This document shows, in pieces, positions 5,671 through 34,646 of a stretch of DNA of 64,000 nt. Under the pieces are notes generated by a model. That model was not told the origin of the DNA. It did not search any database and saw nothing but the letters and a program-made list of their open reading frames with translations. Source of the stretch: Candidatus Latescibacterota bacterium (GTDB taxonomy: Bacteria; Latescibacterota; UBA2968; GCA-2709665); assembly GCA_965203805.1 (NCBI GenBank), contig OZ241917.1, forward strand, positions 3,648,001 to 3,712,000, given 5' to 3'. Numbering within the stretch: the first letter of the stretch is position 1; every line of letters starts with the position of its first letter. The position numbers were made by a program, and so were the translations under genes.

Positions 5671-6105
5671 GTGAGACGTGAGACGCAAGACGGTAGATGA
5701 CGTCCTTGCACGATTGGTCATTGCTCTATGCCGCTGGTATGAAATGAAACCGCACAGGGCAGGCAATCTCTCACGTCTTACGTCTCCCCGCTCTTCAGGC
5801 ACTCACAGTATCTCACGTCTCACGTCTACCCTCTCACCGCCCTTAGGGAATTTGAGGAGATGTGGACGTTGAGTTTTATTCTTGGTTTTGATTCTAACTG
5901 ACGGCTGAATTCTGGTTTGTTGGGGCCTGCCTGCAGCGCCTGTCTGCGTGCGTACACGCACAGGCAGGCAGTACGCTACGCAGGCAGGCAACCCTTGTGG
6001 TTGCCCGCCTTTCGCGTGTTTCCGGGTTTCCTTTGTGTCTTTGTGTCTCCGTGTGAGCAGATTTTCGCTTCAAGCCGACTGCTGAACGCCGATGGCTGAA
6101 AGCTG
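5671..6105. repeat. Intergenic repeat mosaic 1
   Basis: GTGAGAC/TCTCACG heptamer runs, AGGGAATTTGAGGA (5845), nested hairpin inserts within a GGGCAACC-GGTTGCCC hairpin, CTTTGTGT octamers, GCTGA heptamers. Confidence 0.8.
5926..5988. repeat. Two nested mini hairpin inserts (outer 5926-5988, inner 5939-5968)
   Basis: CCTGCCTGCagcg[CCTGTCTGCgtgcgtacacgcaCAGGCAGG]cagtacgctacGCAGGCAGG; removing it restores GGGGCAACCCTTGTGGTTGCCC. Confidence 0.85.
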
Positions 6106-7399: not shown

Positions 7400-8000
7400 T
7401 CGTCTCCCGTCTCCCCGCCTTTAGGGACCTACCCCCTAACCCCCTTCCTGAGAGGAAGGGGGAACGGTGACGGATCGATGGACTAGGCATGCAAATGTGC
7501 CGGGTGGCGATTCGCTGTCAATCAGAGTATCTATAGATGACCGGCCCGCGGCGCCTGGTCTTACTCCCCCTCTCCCCGCGGGAGAGGGGGCCTGCCTGCC
7601 GGTGGTTTTTCGGCAGGCAGGGGGGAGAGGTCTGCGCGCCGATCGCCGGAAGATTTCGTCCGGCCATATCAGTGCCCCGTGGCCGCAGGTTATCATCTCC
7701 CGTCTACCGTCTCCCCTCTCACCGCCTTCAGGGAATTTGGGGAAAAGGGGATTTTGAATTAGGTTTTCGCTTTTGCTTCAAGCTGACGGCTGAATGCTGA
7801 CCGCTGATTGCTGCTTTTCGACGGCAGGGAATTTGGGGAGACGTGGAAGTTGAAGTTGATTTTCGGCTTTGATCCTTACTGACAGCTGTCGGTTGACTGC
7901 TCTGTTTCTCTTTGTGTCTTGGTGTCTTTGTGTGAGCTGATTGCCGTTTTTGATCTTTGCTGACGGCTGACTGCTGACTGCTGAGAGCTGGTTTCTTCTG
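7400..8000. repeat. Intergenic repeat mosaic 2
   Basis: CGTCTCC heptamers, CCCCCTTCC/GGAAGGGGG and CCCCCTCTCCC/GGGAGAGGGGG hairpins, mini insert at 7591-7621, AGGGAATTTGGGGA at 7730 and 7826, GCTGAnn heptamer runs, CTTTGTGT runs. Confidence 0.8.
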
Positions 8001-8979: not shown

Positions 8980-9000
8980 CCTGTCTGCCGGGCAGGCAGG
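8980..9000. repeat. Mini hairpin insert (21 bp)
   Basis: CCTGTCTGCC-g-GGCAGGCAGG at the loop edge of GGCCGG-acg-CCGGCC. Confidence 0.75.
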
Positions 9001-12409: not shown

Positions 12410-13035
12410 GTCCTTTTTCTTGTACGCCCAAGAAAAAGGACCAAAAAGAACGGCGCCTGCCTGCCAAAGCGTCACTGGCAGGCGCAGGCAGGCCGCTCGG
12501 CGCCTGTCTGCGTGCGTGAGACAGCACGCACAGGCAGGCGGGGCCGGTTTTTCCGTGAACCACCTCAGCGGCGCAATTGGAATCTGGGTGCCCTGTCACC
12601 GAAACAGCCCCGACCGAACTACGTTGCTGGACGGATTGGCACGGAAAAACCCCCAGCCACACCACAGTACGCTTGATGGGGCCTCACAAAAAACCGTACG
12701 CGGATGTTCCTGCGCGATGAAGCGTTTACAGACCCCCCAACACCGCCACCAACCTACTGCCTATCCCCTTCCCGAAGGAAGGGGGAAGTGTGATCGCGTG
12801 AAGACATTTCTTACTGCTCCCCCTCTCCCTTTGGGAGAGGGGGCCGGGGGGAGAGGTTTGGGTTTCATCGGTTGCCGCCACGTGACGGCGCTGACGTCAA
12901 CGGGTTTGGCTTTTGTTTCAAGCTGATTGCTGAGAGCTGATCGCTGAATGCTGCTTCCCGCCGGAGGCAAGGAATTTGGGGAAAAGGGGTTTTTGGATTT
13001 GATTTTCGTCCATTGCCTTTAGCTGTCAGCTGTCA
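12410..13035. repeat. Intergenic repeat mosaic 3 with two mini hairpin inserts (12456-12492, 12503-12538)
   Basis: TCCTTTTTCTTG...CAAGAAAAAGGA hairpin, two CCTG(C/T)CTGC...CAGGCAGG units, CCCCTTCC/GGAAGGGG and CCCCCTCTCCC/GGGAGAGGGGG hairpins, GCTGA heptamers, AAGGAATTTGGGGA (12969). Confidence 0.8.
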
Positions 13036-30267: not shown

Positions 30268-31527
30268 TCAGCTTTCCGACATCGCCGCGCTGAGAATCCG
30301 TGAGGTGCCGGGCCGCATGATGCGCGGGTCCACCGCCTCCCCCTTCAGCAGCATCTCCCGCACCTGTTTTCCTGAGATGAACACGGGCTGCTCGTCCGGA
30401 TGGCTTTCCATCAGGTCCACCCGTCCCAGCGATTCGTAGAACGCGGCGAAACCCACGTTCAGGGGGCGGATCTCCAGGTTTCCGTTCAGGCGGTCGAACA
30501 CCTCCTGCGCGTCGAAATCTCCCCAGATGGGGCTGCCGTCGTGATAGGGCGCATCGGCGTGTTTGCGACCGATGATGATGTCGGTGAAGCCGAAGTTCTG
30601 GCGGTAGATCGCGTGCATCACCGCCTCTTTCGGGCCTGCGTAGAACATCTTGATATCCAGGCCGATGAGAATCACCCGGTCGGGCACGGCCTCGCCCCTG
30701 GGTTCCCACAATCCGGCATCGCTGTCCCCCTCCCCCAGACCGCGGGACTCGATCAGCGCCTCGTAGGTCCGCATCCGGATTTCCGCGTTGACGTCGTCGG
30801 ATTTGGTTTCTCCCACCAAGGGGTTCAGACATGCCCCGGCGTCGATCCCTTTCCGAATCAGGGTTTCCAGTCCGTGGACCAGGGCGTACTCGTGAGCCCG
30901 GTGCAGCGGGTTGCGGGTCTGAAACGCGACCACCCGACGCCAGCCCGTTTCGGAGAGGAGACGACGGACCTCCGCCGGCGTGTGCATATATCGCCCGAAC
31001 GCGGGATGCTTCGGTTGCGGCAAACCCCTGATCGTGCCGCCCAGAAGGTGGGTCTTGTCCGCATCTCCGTTCAGAACCATATCCGCGCCGGGATGGTCGG
31101 TCCGTTCCGTGAGGTAGACGCTTTTCAGATACGCGTGCTTGTCCCAGGGGAAGACGTCGCTGATCTCGAGAGTACCCGCAAGCTCGCCGTCCGGCCGCTC
31201 AAGGGCAACCGTCTGCCCCGCCTCCAGCTGACCGGCCAGGTCGCTCGAAACCGGAAGCGCCAGGGGAATGGTCCACGCGTACAGCTTCCCGCCGGAATCG
31301 ATGACACATTCGTCGAGCACTCTGTGATACGTCTCCGCGTCCATCGGACCGGTGAGCGGACTCAGCCCGCCGTCTCCGAAACGGTAGACCGTGGACAGAT
31401 CGGCCTCGCTGACCGGAACGCGTGTCAGCTTCGACGCGTTCTCGCGAAAATCGTCCTGCTCGTCGTCCGGAACCATGCGGCAAACCGGCGCCGGCAGCCC
31501 CCCATGCGGCGGTATCAGATCGGACAT
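30268..31527 (-). CDS. sat: Sulfate adenylyltransferase
   Basis: [47 protein letters not shown]. Confidence 0.95.
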
Positions 31528-31640
31528 AGGCGAGACAATCCTCCAAATGGCAAAAGTTCCAGGTTCATCATTCAGCCCCGGCGTTCACGGCAATGTGCGG
31601 TCATACGTGCGCACACACTCTAAGGAAGGCAATATGAAGA

Positions 31641-31855
31641 TGGGGCGGACATTCCTGTCTGCCGTCTCACCAACCTTCTGCAGGAAGGGAGACGACAGTA
31701 ACGCTTCCGTCGCGAAATCATCCAGCAAATGCGTGCGCCACTCGCGTGCTTGGACCCTCGGAAAGCCGGTTTGAGGGTGGGGCAGACATTCCTGTCTGCC
31801 AGCCTTTCCCAGCACCGCTCCCTGAGCCTGCGGTGCCCTGAGCTTGTCGAAGGGT
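31641..31855. repeat. REP-like hairpins
   Basis: TGGGGC(G/A)GACATTCCTGTCTGCC at 31641 and 31778; CCCTGAGC twice, including CCCTGAGCTTGTCGAAGGG (31820-31855). Confidence 0.65.
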
Positions 31856-32000
31856 CGGTGCGGGACCCACCGAATCAGAAAGCGGTAAATATACCGTAAA
31901 ACCCATCGCAGGGCAAAAAAGATGCGCCGAAAATGGGCGAGAGAAAGCTGTTTGCCGAGCGGTTTCTATCGATATCTGTGCATCGGAAGGTACAATTTAA

Positions 32001-33310
32001 GGAACCTCTGATCAACCAGAGGGAATGAGCAAGTTGTAACTTATGGGTCGTTTCGGAGGCTGTTTATGTTGAGAGGGTCGTCATCTTTCGGGTTTGCACG
32101 GGTGATTCCGGCCCCGGATGCGCTCGGTGCCGGCCATTTTGGCCGCCAGCGTCCGAATTGGAGGCACGGGTGCCTATGTAGTAGCCAGTTCCTGACGTGC
32201 CATATGGAAGTTAGCCAAGGCAAACAAGGTGAACAGATGCGCCGTATTCTTCGCCAGACCGCGATACCTGACCTTTCGGTAGCCCCACAGGTGTTTGATG
32301 ATCCCAAAGGGATGTTCCCTGTCTGCGTGCGTGAGACAGCACGCACAGGCAGGGACCCGTGCGCGCGTGCGATTGCTCTTCTTGTTGAACGAAACATCCG
32401 CGCAGTTGAGCCGCTTGCCCCGGCGGGCCTTGCGAAGCACTCGCCATTCCACGTCGTTGGCTTCGGCCCGTTCTTTTCGCGTCTGATCCGCATAGGCCTT
32501 GTCGCCGTAGATGGTCTTTTCTTTTCCGTGCAGACAGGCATCCATCGCCTGCGAATCATGCACCGAAGCGGGGGTGGTCACCACACTGTGCACCCGTCCC
32601 TTCACATCCGCGCCCACGTGCGCCTTCATGCCGAAATGCCACGTGTTGCCCTTCTTCGTGCTGGCCATTTCAGGATCCCGTTTCCGATCCTTGTTCTTCG
32701 TCGAAGAAGGCGCGTGAATGATCGTGGCATCCACGATCGTGCCTTCGTTCACGATCAATCCCCGCCTGGACAAGTAGCGCTTCGTTTGCCGAAACAACGC
32801 TTCCGTCAACCCATGGTGCTCCAGAAAGTGACGGAATTTGCAGATCGTCGTCTCATCAGGTACGCCGTTGATGTTCACACCCGCAAAGCCCTGCCTGCAG
32901 CAGGCAGGGACGCATCGACTCCACGTCGTAGAGACTGTCTTCCATTCCCGGATCGCTCAATCCATACCATTGTTGCATAAAGTAGATACGCAGCATCACC
33001 TCCGCACCGATCGGACGACCTGCCTGCGCCGACTCGGCAGGCAGGCGACCGTTGCCAGGTTTCGGATACTTCCTCTCAATCGATTTAAGCAGTATCTCCC
33101 ACGGCAACACCGCATCCATCTCTTTCAGAAAACGTTCCCTGCGCGTCTGCTTCTTCTTCGTCCTGTACGCCAGATCCGAAAAACTCATTTGTTTCATCCC
33201 TGGGCCCCTCGTTCTATGTCGATCCATCAGAAATCACAACACGACGGCTCACGCTCCAATTCTACGACTTTCTGCATGGCGTGCCAATAGGTAACTTAAT
33301 CAGAGCTTCC
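32001..33310 (-). mobile_element. IS5-family insertion sequence
   Basis: Terminal IRs GGAACCTCTGATCAA / TTAATCAGAGCTTCC (13/15), flanked by a TTAA target duplication (31997-32000, 33311-33314). Confidence 0.93.
32174..33197 (-). pseudogene. IS5 transposase disrupted by three mini hairpin inserts (36, 19 and 27 bp)
   Basis: TRRERFL, PDETTI, IVDAT, WHFGMKAH, YGDKAY, EHPF, KVRYRGL. Removing 82 bp of inserts gives a continuous 942-bp ORF. Confidence 0.92.
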
Positions 33311-33539
33311 TTAAGATATGGAAGATATTGAGGGTCACGCTTGTTTGTCTTGACATCATGCTTAGGGTGATAATTTCGCGTGGATTCGGGTTGACAACGT
33401 CACTTCCGGGCCGTACGATAACAACGGGTGTTGCGTTTTGCGACATGCGCAACGCCATGAATCGCCTCGATGGATTGCCGTGACTGTTACAAACCGACAG
33501 GAGGTCCGAAAGTCTCCCGTCAATCCGCATTGATCCACT

Positions 33540-34646
33540 ATGACCCAGCGATTACCATATTCAAATCAACTGGATATCGCAACACTGAGTAGATTGTTCA
33601 AGCATACGACCAATTCGTACAAGTATCTATTTTTTATGTCGTTGCTGACGATGTTAAAGGATAGGCATTTCCTGGTCGAGGATGGCATTGAGCTCAGCGA
33701 AATTGAGATCGAGATGCTGGTTACAGCGTGGTATCCACATGTTTTTTTTAAGTTGTCATTTGGCACGCAGGACCAGATCGCTCAGGTACTGAATTCTATC
33801 GAGTACATCGGGGATGACAAAGATTACCTGTCATCAACGGGGCGCAGGAAATTGCGGAAACATCTCTCCCACAATAGTAAGTCGTCGGATTACAAATTAA
33901 CGCGTTTCGTCCCGTTTCGAATACTACGCCCGTTTTTCTCCACGGAAACGAGAGGAATACCAGATCAAAGGGTGAACCGAGAGGTCTCCAGCCTTGCCGC
34001 CGAACATTTCCATGTACGACGCCCTCTTTTTCGCTTCGACAATTGTGAGAGAAGGATCTTTATGCATACGGATTGGGTTGCCTATTTGAAAGAACATCAG
34101 ACGATTCTCGAGGGGTGGGGGCTATGGCATTGGTCAGAATATATGCAGCGAAGGAATCCAGGTATTCCCGCTGTAACGCGAAAGTTGTTTCCCCCGGATC
34201 GGAGAGCGCCACTCTATGCACAGCGTAGGTTCTGGGATGCTGCGATTGATGAAACGAACATACGATGCATCTACACAGGGAAGAAGCTGGTTCACGGTTA
34301 TGAATTGGATCACTTCCTGCCGTGGAGATTCGTAGCCCACGATCAGTTGTGGAATCTCATACCCGTCGATTCCCGGGCGAACAGTTCCAAGAGCGACCAG
34401 ATTCCGTCAGAGATTTACATCGACCGCCTGGCTGAAATCCAGAGTGACGCGCTATCTATTGCAAGGGACAGCATGAGCGATGCGAAATGGAAGAGGGAAG
34501 TTGAACCCTATTCCACGGACCTTTATATTAAGGATGTTGAAACTCTGGATCGCGAGAAACTTAAGTCTGCATATTGCAGAACGTTGAGGCCGCTGATGTC
34601 AATTGCGGAACAACAGGGGTTCCAAAGCGGGTGGACTTACAAATGA
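33540..34646 (+). CDS. HNH endonuclease domain protein
   Basis: N-terminal TTNSYKY; C-terminal CIYTG...LDHFLPW...LWNL...ANSSKSD; lower GC than core genes. Confidence 0.8.
   Translation: MTQRLPYSNQLDIATLSRLFKHTTNSYKYLFFMSLLTMLKDRHFLVEDGIELSEIEIEMLVTAWYPHVFFKLSFGTQDQIAQVLNSIEYIGDDKDYLSSTGRRKLRKHLSHNSKSSDYKLTRFVPFRILRPFFSTETRGIPDQRVNREVSSLAAEHFHVRRPLFRFDNCERRIFMHTDWVAYLKEHQTILEGWGLWHWSEYMQRRNPGIPAVTRKLFPPDRRAPLYAQRRFWDAAIDETNIRCIYTGKKLVHGYELDHFLPWRFVAHDQLWNLIPVDSRANSSKSDQIPSEIYIDRLAEIQSDALSIARDSMSDAKWKREVEPYSTDLYIKDVETLDREKLKSAYCRTLRPLMSIAEQQGFQSGWTYK

Follow-up and report, generated by a model that had tools for sequence, protein, structure and literature searches.

We analysed a stretch of 64,000 nucleotides from the genome of Candidatus Latescibacterota bacterium (contig OZ241917.1), called the window hereafter, which comprises positions 3,648,001-3,712,000 of a single-contig assembly of 5,865,457 bp with 59% G+C. 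The window harbors an insertion sequence (IS) of the IS5 family whose transposase gene is interrupted by three short hairpins, named inserts 1, 2, and 3. These inserts, similar hairpins found throughout the genome, and the enzymes that might move them were examined; coordinates are collected in Table 1.

An IS5-family element with three hairpin inserts

The host element encodes a DDE transposase, is bounded by imperfect terminal inverted repeats of 15 bp, is flanked by a short target duplication and belongs to the IS5 family. Its transposase gene is split into two overlapping frames of 123 and 234 amino acids (aa), the larger of which matched NCBIfam model NF033581 (IS5 transposase) with 236 bits at a cut-off of 140. 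From the ATG at 33197 to the stop codon at 32174 the gene measures 1024 nt; subtraction of the 82 nt of insert leaves the clean open reading frame of 942 bp that a first-pass annotation, made from the sequence alone, had described. The positions and lengths it had given for the three inserts were likewise confirmed by direct reading. The boundaries of inserts 1 and 2 are unambiguous, those of insert 3 can be shifted by 1 nt, and, when folded as DNA, each of the three forms a hairpin (-8 to -11 kcal/mol; z between -2.2 and -3.8).

Intact IS5 transposases of other phyla were used as tblastn queries on the window. Two of them, L004 (from a Gemmatimonadetes bin, 80% identity) and L005 (78%), aligned with gaps of exactly 12 aa and 9 aa at inserts 1 and 3; at the 19-bp insert, the frame changed between ESMR and FAGV with one homologue residue between the aligned segments. 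This agrees with the earlier statement that the 19-bp insert shifts the frame and the other two add residues in frame. Furthermore, IS copies 77-83% identical to the window IS5 were found in four congeneric genomes (G002, G003, G007, and G013). In the DNA alignment, the 36-mer is missing from the copies of G002, G013, and G003, leaving a clean gap of 36 columns, and the 19-mer and 27-mer are missing from those of G007, G002, and G013; the fragment of G003 ends before both sites. The gaps measure 36, 19, and 27 bp, and no base is duplicated or lost. The copy of G007, 82% identical overall, carries the identical 36-mer at the identical site.

Additionally, contigs from four public runs were aligned to the IS5; such contigs demonstrate presence only, and the runs holding the window stretch are labelled as coral and sponge metagenomes. 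Two contigs of the source organism's run (X1) carried all three inserts without differences. A 1286-nt contig of a coral metagenome (X4) skipped exactly 36, 19, and 27 bases, with nine other differences, and a sponge metagenome (X5) had the 19-mer and lacked the 36-mer and the 27-mer. Altogether, the insert states {none}, {1}, {2}, and {1,2,3} were seen. Because homologous IS5 copies lack the inserts base for base, the direction of change, as judged from these alignments, is insertion, exact to the base. Precise insertion without target duplication, as claimed by the first-pass annotation, is thus upheld: alignment with intact IS5 copies located empty sites in the congeners and in X4, and filled and empty alleles both occur in the metagenome contigs. 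An RNA contig (X6), which covers nothing of 32890-33350, also skips the 36-mer; removal of the hairpin at the RNA level was considered and dropped, since X4 DNA from the same sample likewise lacks the 36-mer and its absence from X6 therefore reflects an empty allele, not processing.

We assign a negligible probability to the reading that the inserts are ancestral sequence lost from the homologues by deletion, or artefacts of the assembly. In its favour, palindromes are prone to deletion, and the read type behind the single-contig assembly is unknown. Against it, every length-compared match of a distant-homologue scan spans 12 fewer codons than the query, neither in-frame segment is present in the two intact homologues compared residue by residue, and units of this kind stand at hundreds of sites that are unrelated to each other; moreover, the inserts are found on contigs of the source run, and both states are found in independent metagenomes. 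The reading is already contradicted by the homologue, congener, and contig comparisons.

The IS5 of the window is present in five genome copies, which are 100% identical with 0 differences across 1310 bp. Each has direct repeats of 4-5 bp of its own, those of the other four being TCAA, GTAC, TTGA, and ATGAG. Hence, the IS5 must have transposed after gaining all three hairpins, the frameshifting one included. This poses a puzzle, as a transposase gene with a frameshifting insert multiplied and no intact copy is present in the assembled genome; at E ≤ 1e-8, the assembly encodes no further relatives of this transposase. A helper copy may have been lost since or be absent from the assembly, the hairpin may be excised exactly in some cells, or the split transposase may be functional; a ribosome may also slip by +1 at a CUU_UGC motif, to judge from the nucleotides around insert 2. 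There, the 19-mer (window 32880-32910, minus strand) puts AGGCAGGG immediately ahead of CUU UGC, so that the mRNA reads ...GCA GGG CUU UGC..., and omitting one base after GGG returns the transposase to frame. We take a CUU_U slip site after a G-rich stretch to resemble the +1 frameshift site of prfB. The presence of the IS5 at the window locus is itself polymorphic, as a 4870-nt sponge-metagenome contig (X5) joins 31996 to 33311 and represents the empty site.

Table 1. Features of the IS5 locus, hairpin elements of the window, and transposase-like genes elsewhere in the source genome (window positions unless marked otherwise)
Feature	Position	Strand	Description
IS5-family insertion sequence	32001..33310	-	1310 bp; imperfect terminal inverted repeats GGAACCTCTGATCAA / GGAAGCTCTGATTAA
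Target duplication of the IS5	left 31997..32000, right 33311-33314		TTAA, 4 bp; read from sequence
Transposase gene	32174..33197	-	942 bp without inserts; overlapping frames 33227..32856 and 32878..32174
Insert 1	32318..32353		36 bp, CCTGTCTGCGTGCGTGAGACAGCACGCACAGGCAGG; hairpin, in frame, +12 aa
Insert 2	32890..32908		19 bp, CCTGCCTGCAGCAGGCAGG; perfect 9-bp inverted repeat around one base; frame shift, +1 nt
Insert 3	33019..33045		27 bp, CCTGCCTGCGCCGACTCGGCAGGCAGG; hairpin, in frame, +9 aa
Nested composite	5926..5988		33-mer interrupted after base 13 by 30-mer; intergenic
31-bp family member	7591..7621		intergenic
21-bp family member	8980..9000		upstream of likely true start of Cof-type HAD hydrolase
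37-mer and 36-mer	12456..12538		37-mer (12456-12492) and, 10 bp on, the 36-mer of insert 1 (12503-12538); inside non-coding host repeat
RAYT-A, a tyrosine transposase (RAYT) associated with repetitive extragenic palindromes (REPs)	4,533,512-4,534,117 (genome)		family 33-mer 7 bp past stop codon
RAYT-B	G000:C1:4546977-4550684 (L103:2978-6685)		residues 331-424 of a 1235-aa DUF1156 anti-phage-type methylase frame

The hairpin family across the genome

The genome-wide pattern search envisaged in the first-pass annotation was carried out with a regular expression for the ends CCTG(C/T)CTG...CAG(G/A)CAGG. Over the 5.87-Mb genome it returned 234 matches, which merge to 231 blocks, as compared to about 4-5 paired ends within 80 nt expected by chance, an estimate from 8-mer frequencies. 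The strict pattern gave 180 matches per strand and, when read backwards, 0. Each unit has a constant foot of 8-9 bp, in which CCTG(C/T)CTG(C) pairs with (G)CAG(G/A)CAGG; the upper stem and the loop are variable, usually with a bulge of 2-3 nt or a T.G pair, and many elements have a T.G mismatch in the foot (CCTGTCTG vs CAGGCAGG). Simple units are 19-37 bp long, 31- and 33-mers being the commonest. Longer blocks are explained by nesting of one element in another, as in the 63-bp composite of the window (33+30); other composite lengths would fit sums of units. No Rfam family matched within 31500-34000 at E ≤ 1.

The 36-mer of insert 1 recurs in the window (Table 1) and at two other non-IS sites of the genome, and the 19-mer of insert 2 at four non-IS sites of the source genome and many times in G016. 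At 100% identity, the 36-mer was also seen in other genomes, at no fewer than eight sites in G008, four in G011, two each in G013 and G015, and one in G007, where 11 further copies are 97% identical; the genomes sharing the identical 36-mer are themselves far more diverged. The first-pass annotation had found no such insert in other coding genes, which is correct for the window; it had not listed five further copies at four intergenic places (Table 1). The 21-bp copy near the Cof-type HAD hydrolase gene precedes a profile match that starts at residue 69 of the extended frame.

Empty sites were searched by joining the flanks of each block by script and searching the genome with the product. A gap-free empty paralogous site was found for 80 of the 231 blocks, collapsing to 23 distinct targets, and no base was duplicated or lost. 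Examples are the 21-mer at 433,500, with empty sites 99.6% identical over 240 bp, and the 30-mer at 689,671 (99.5%). All 26 sites for which an empty allele is known agree to the base in where the element begins and ends, without duplication. At several targets, the subfamily inserted differs from one copy of the host repeat to another; together with the 36-mer at the site shared with G007, this points to recurrent hits at preferred sites.

Near-identical copies thus exist in both a filled and an empty form, whether compared within the genome, between congeners, or in metagenomes. What moves is the single hairpin, and its targets include other elements of the family, other hairpin repeats, and transposase genes of at least five kinds. 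The earlier proposal of ultra-small non-autonomous mobile elements is borne out by these exact, duplication-free filled and empty sites. We consider it probable that the three inserts are copies of a genome-wide, REP-like family of very small mobile hairpins (19 to about 40 bp) which are moved in trans. A folded single strand would be moved by a cut- or copy-and-paste reaction, and a structure-specific nuclease-ligase would be supplied in trans.

Movement without a dedicated enzyme, by replication template switching or by short-patch gene conversion between copies of a host repeat, appears quite improbable. The one-base relation between flank and end (G|C) resembles microhomology of 0-4 nt, many insertions lie within multi-copy repeats and could have been converted, and no consistent linkage to an enzyme was found. 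Template switching, however, should leave ragged ends, and the 26 sites with base-identical boundaries include unique sequences like the IS5 gene; moreover, conversion cannot account for the first insertions into a single-family gene. The number of elements across one genus varies in a patchy manner from 0 to 190 per genome, which looks like gain or loss of an activity.

The target is defined most clearly by its innermost flanks. At 20 of the 26 sites with known empty alleles the bases at ±1 are complementary, and ±2 to ±8 are at chance. The 114 blocks in unique DNA have G|C flanks in 66 cases and complementary flanks in 78; the genome frequencies are 8.5% for the GC dinucleotide and 27% for the four self-complementary dinucleotides together. 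With G|C flanks, the stem gains one pair upon insertion. The IS5 inserts depart from this preference, with flanks of C|G, C|G, and A|C; moving the joint of the third by one base makes it C|G as well. A 2-bp core common to element and target, of the serine-recombinase type, was rejected, as it fits the G|C sites and not C|G or A|T; hence, the target rule is one of symmetry rather than repetition. A palindromic target extending beyond ±1 was rejected as well, because complementarity at ±2 to ±8 is only at chance level.

The location of the elements was analysed with a classifier for coding and non-coding DNA that is a crude codon-usage score made for this analysis; sequence of 200 bp or longer that is at least 85% identical counted as repeated DNA. 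Read-through coding sequence contains only 20 of the 231 blocks, as compared to 56% of 3000 random sites. The density amounts to 0.006 blocks per kb in coding-like unique, 0.063 in non-coding-like unique, and 0.578 in repeated DNA; coding DNA is thus depleted about tenfold. Repeated DNA makes up 3.5% of the genome and contains 117 blocks, and the other 114 lie in unique DNA, for the most part between genes. Much of the surplus in repeats stems from copying of repeats that had already been hit, and once such copies are collapsed, the density exceeds that in unique non-coding DNA only modestly. Ten coding-frame hosts were scanned, of which seven are transposase-like (among them DDE_Tnp_1_4, DUF772, a Mu-type C-terminal domain, and two DDE_3 genes); the window IS5 is the eighth such gene. 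As to the enrichment in IS genes that the first-pass annotation had proposed to test, the in-coding hosts are mostly transposase genes, and about half of all blocks stand in unique DNA.

The same annotation had suggested, as an alternative, a host mechanism that stamps hairpins into mobile DNA and thereby disables it; the targets would be transposase genes. Most in-coding copies are indeed in transposase genes, of at least five IS families, half of the blocks fall into the small repeated fraction of the genome, and one insert frameshifts the IS5 gene. Such a defence is nevertheless very unlikely: the blocks in unique DNA stand beside ordinary genes, the excess in repeats consists in good part of copies of repeats hit earlier (23 sites account for 80 blocks), the reading frame is kept by two of the three inserts in the IS5, and the triply hit IS5 made five identical copies with separate target duplications. 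Purifying selection against hits in essential genes accounts for the pattern without targeting. Purging from needed genes and tolerance in selfish or non-coding DNA would give the distribution seen here, and targeting is unnecessary; the IS5 gene would thus be a tolerated, not a targeted, landing site.

Several loci illustrate the range of hosts. A DDE_Tnp_1_4 gene (G000:C1:433390-434823; L093:591-2024, minus strand) contains four elements (21, 25, 33, and 19 bp by the pattern); it is open for 478 aa with a single-stretch profile match, and paralogues carry one or two of the four. As the four insert lengths do not sum to a multiple of three, the frame must be restored by a compensating change, or a boundary must differ from that given by the pattern. 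A 30-bp element at G000:C1:1261191-1261220 (L098:1392-1421) lies in an open frame about 75 codons ahead of a DnaE-type PHP domain. The region G000:C1:3,240,000-3,475,000 is dense in repeats, with as many as 36 blocks of the family in 100 kb, other G/C-rich hairpin modules (e.g. CCCCCTCTCCC-GGG-GGGAGAGGGGG), and small genes, two of which encode DUF559 endonucleases; the elements change orientation close to 3.33 Mb and once more close to 3.46 Mb.

Candidate enzymes

The window encodes no mobilizing enzyme, as the first-pass annotation had noted, and the genome was examined for candidates. An autonomous master element between paired ends was rejected: of ten genes scanned between consecutive elements, nine are ordinary housekeeping genes (GNAT, MacB/FtsX, thiamine pyrophosphate enzyme, H+-pyrophosphatase, HlyD, and others), and one is a DUF772 transposase.

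Exact, duplication-free joints are a signature of Y1/HUH enzymes. The genome has two matches only to the Y1 domain (PF01797), RAYT-A and RAYT-B, which scored 104 and 88 bits with the RAYT model NF047646 at a cut-off of 80. An element of the family lies beside each of them: the 33-mer at RAYT-A (Table 1) and, at the RAYT-B locus, a 27-mer that sits within the hairpin flanking it on the left, some 30 bp upstream of the part resembling RAYT-A. At least 16 elements are present in each of the six genomes that have a RAYT-A orthologue; these genomes are related and not independent.

Several results weigh against a link between these enzymes and the family, and in part against the explanation given above. 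In six of six genomes, RAYT-A is flanked by a different hairpin, CGAGGGCA-GG(G)A-TGCCCTCG, on both sides and in both orientations. RAYT-B is flanked by inverted copies of GCGG(A/G)CG-GGA-CG(T/C)CCGC, and the 27-mer is inserted into the left copy. None of nine RAYT loci of relatives, five of them RAYT-A orthologues, has an element with CCTG ends (CCTG element) within 1.5 kb. G015 contains 140 elements and neither RAYT-A nor RAYT-B, its only related gene being a RAYT-like gene of 256 aa that is absent from the source genome. Among 22 genomes of family f1, eight or more elements occur in six of nine with a RAYT above cut-off and in six of 13 without, hence there is no phyletic signal. Moreover, the density in repeats exceeds that in unique non-coding DNA, and some preference for repeats or hairpins may exist. 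A conserved tetranucleotide before the insertion site, as predicted by IS200/IS605 chemistry, was not found, only -1 (G) being strongly biased, and no orientation bias relative to the replication arms was evident, the extremes of GC skew being broad.

CCTG elements beside RAYTs were thus seen in the source genome only, one per gene. G017, G018, and G031 have RAYTs above cut-off and 0-2 elements; these genomes, too, are related and not independent. The combination of RAYT and CCTG element as a classical REPtron was dropped because each RAYT has a different hairpin of its own and orthologous loci of relatives carry such other hairpins and no CCTG element. A second RAYT-like family (256 aa; G001, G003, G007, G012, and G015) was rejected, as it has no CCTG element within 2 kb and is absent from the source genome. 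As to the co-occurrence with RAYTs that the first-pass annotation had proposed to profile, two RAYTs are present, each beside one element, and RAYTs above cut-off show no association with element number across the 22 genomes. Its suggestion of HUH/Y1 chemistry is plausible in view of the exact, duplication-free joints and is weakened by the hairpins that both RAYTs carry as their own. A RAYT (Y1/HUH) acting in trans as the mobilizing enzyme is our leading guess, on chemistry alone, and would have to be called tentative, somewhat short of even chances; the remaining probability goes to an enzyme so far unrecognized.

The RAYT-A locus lies in an array of units of about 300-350 bp (G000:C1:4532012-4535614, L083), each with CGAGGGCA-GGGA-TGCCCTCG in both orientations, and the cognate hairpin has a GTAG head in two copies beside the gene. 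The array corresponds to a small REPtron of the classical type; its hairpin has about 30 copies in the genome, of which half lie beside the gene. In RAYT-B, the RAYT domain lies between N-terminal DUF1156/methylase motifs and the remaining protein. In-frame arrangements of RAYT and DUF1156 occur in three other genomes in frames of 1203-1441 aa (G008:C1:1912806-1913372; G011:C2:164031-164603 and 169774-170337; G016:C1:3070596-3072674), G016 having two RAYT domains within one open frame of 1441 aa. The RAYT in the methylase could be a fusion, a tolerated intein-like insertion, or a reversible disruption.

A third pairing of REPs with a nuclease, in which the dedicated enzyme is neither RAYT nor SsnA, was weighed with the small DUF559 Vsr-like PD-(D/E)XK endonucleases as an example, an unrecognized protein being another. 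The lead was a DUF559 gene with elements on both sides. Genes for DUF559 are present in 14 genomes of family f1, 12 of which have eight or more elements, and were not found in eight, all with three or fewer; within f1, DUF559 thus fits better than the RAYTs. A CCTG element lies within 300 bp of seven of 33 DUF559 matches (four of seven in G016, two of five in G000, and one of two in G007), and one further copy in G000 has an element with one mismatch about 55 bp upstream. Furthermore, Vsr cuts at T:G mismatches, and the T.G mismatch in the foot of many elements would suit such an enzyme. On the other hand, close orthologues (60-74% identity) exist in four genomes of family f2 with 0-1 elements (G019, G020, G024, and G048), G021 has 19 elements and no DUF559, no element lies beside the four DUF559 matches of G015 or the four of G013, and G031 has two DUF559 genes and two elements. 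DUF559 genes also occupy repeat-dense islands where any hairpin family is common, the related genomes are non-independent samples, and a plain nuclease leaves the exact rejoining unexplained. DUF559 as the enzyme thus fails in f2, G013, G015, and G031 and is kept as a weak rival; a third pairing of this kind is unlikely overall. In G016, four of seven DUF559 matches have a CCTG element within 100 bp (C1:892113-892208, 1624137-1624403, 2300084-2300398, and 2438219-2438359), one being flanked on both sides; the element density of this genome is about one per 31 kb.

A GIY-YIG nuclease had also been named in the first-pass annotation as a gene that might co-occur. No small ssnA-like gene was found in the genome, the only two PF01541 matches being located in frames of 629 and 678 aa, both of which appear to be UvrC-like.

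Comparison with known hairpin repeats

In a broad definition, REPs are short (about 14-40 nt), palindromic and able to form a stem-loop, similar to each other, multi-copy, and mostly extragenic (RepRanger paper). The hairpins described here are stem-loop units of 19-37 bp in 231 blocks with a common motif, are seldom coding, and are REPs in this broad operational sense. The first-pass annotation had regarded known HUH-linked hairpin units as much larger; this does not hold, as REPs measure only 20-40 bp (Nunvar 2010; Di Nocera 2013). In the literature searched, no paper with both 9-mers or the motif was found; supplementary tables outside the search may list similar repeats.

Like the GTAG REPs with their RAYTs (Nunvar 2010; Bertels & Rainey 2011; Ton-Hoang 2012), the elements are imperfect, bulged palindromes of 19-40 bp in hundreds of copies, mostly extragenic near gene ends, arranged in mosaic clusters, without target duplication and occasionally in frame, in a genome with a RAYT. 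In contrast to GTAG REPs as described there, they have no GT(A/G)G head, which is absent from the 70 commonest variants, and have symmetric (CCTG)2/(CAGG)2 ends; in contrast to a REPtron, the RAYT genes are flanked by other hairpins and not by inverted copies of the CCTG family. They also differ from REP doublets forming hairpins (REPINs) in that single hairpins are inserted and nest in each other frequently. REP singlets are considered immobile in the REPIN view, and direct evidence for REP movement is scarce, with three excision reads detected in 56 million (Bertels & Rainey 2011); how REPs spread is still poorly understood (Corneloup 2021).

The CGTC REPs (NTS/SRM) likewise are hairpins that surround genes in hundreds of copies (Di Nocera 2013; Chenal 2025). 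They are processed as single-stranded DNA by SsnA, a small dedicated GIY-YIG nuclease whose gene often has the repeat at its flanks (Chenal 2025), hence REP-like families can have enzymes other than RAYTs. Unlike the CGTC REPs in these accounts, the present family has no CGTC tag, and its genome no small ssnA-like gene that we could find. Apparently, the family fits neither of the known pairings of REP and enzyme, GTAG/RAYT and CGTC/SsnA.

The nearest parallel is formed by the small dispersed repeats (SDR) of heterocystous cyanobacteria, a different phylum with unrelated sequences. Elhai and colleagues reportedly described them in 2008 as hairpin units of 21-27 nt, nested in their own copies and in other repeats. 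One SDR family is reportedly centred in a palindromic octamer, and the repeats were reportedly proposed to be the smallest mobile elements; they are not known to have an enzyme. The family described here differs from the SDR in the filled and empty alleles seen directly in DNA that is nearly identical, in its defined G|C target, and in having entered coding genes.

Larger mobile elements share individual properties. Exactness and the lack of a duplication are common to IS200/IS605 elements and their miniature derivatives, which are moved as folded strands by a Y1 HUH enzyme, as proposed here. Those elements measure hundreds of bp, have two different subterminal hairpins, and enter 3' of a tetra- or pentanucleotide that is fixed, whereas here one hairpin is the whole element and the bias is confined to the base adjoining the joint. 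Miniature inverted-repeat transposable elements differ in that here no target-site duplication occurs and filled and empty alleles differ by the element alone.

RPE-1, one of the Rickettsia palindromic elements (RPE), measures about 100-150 bp. Like RPE and the intragenic REPs of Opitutus terrae and others (in Di Nocera 2013), inserts described here are palindromes placed in frame in genes that remain open; in those systems about 10-30 residues are added, and some genes are hit twice. Those cases, as reported, concern housekeeping and repair genes, and intragenic in-frame REPs have already been described, including those in DnaE/DnaE2 genes (Di Nocera 2013); here, the hosts are transposase genes, with one frame shift. 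In comparison with these accounts, the symmetric untagged ends, the frequent self-nesting, the defined G|C target, and the repeated hits in transposase genes are new. Direct proof of insertion of single hairpins, down to 19 bp, is new as well and contrary to the REPIN view of dead singlets.

It is conceivable, if rather doubtful, that the family represents a third superfamily of bacterial hairpin repeats after GTAG/RAYT and CGTC/Ssn, in which a single hairpin of 19-36 nt transposes and is blunt-joined at G|C by an enzyme class so far unlinked to REPs, its insertions being reversible or translationally bypassed. If true, reversible or bypassed insertions would account for the frameshifted IS5 reaching five identical copies. 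The data challenge the view that single hairpins are immobile remnants. With dozens of base-exact filled and empty alleles in this genome and its relatives, a target preference, nesting, and polymorphism in wild populations from coral and sponge samples, the insertion chemistry is directly testable, and REP movement can be studied on this family in nature.

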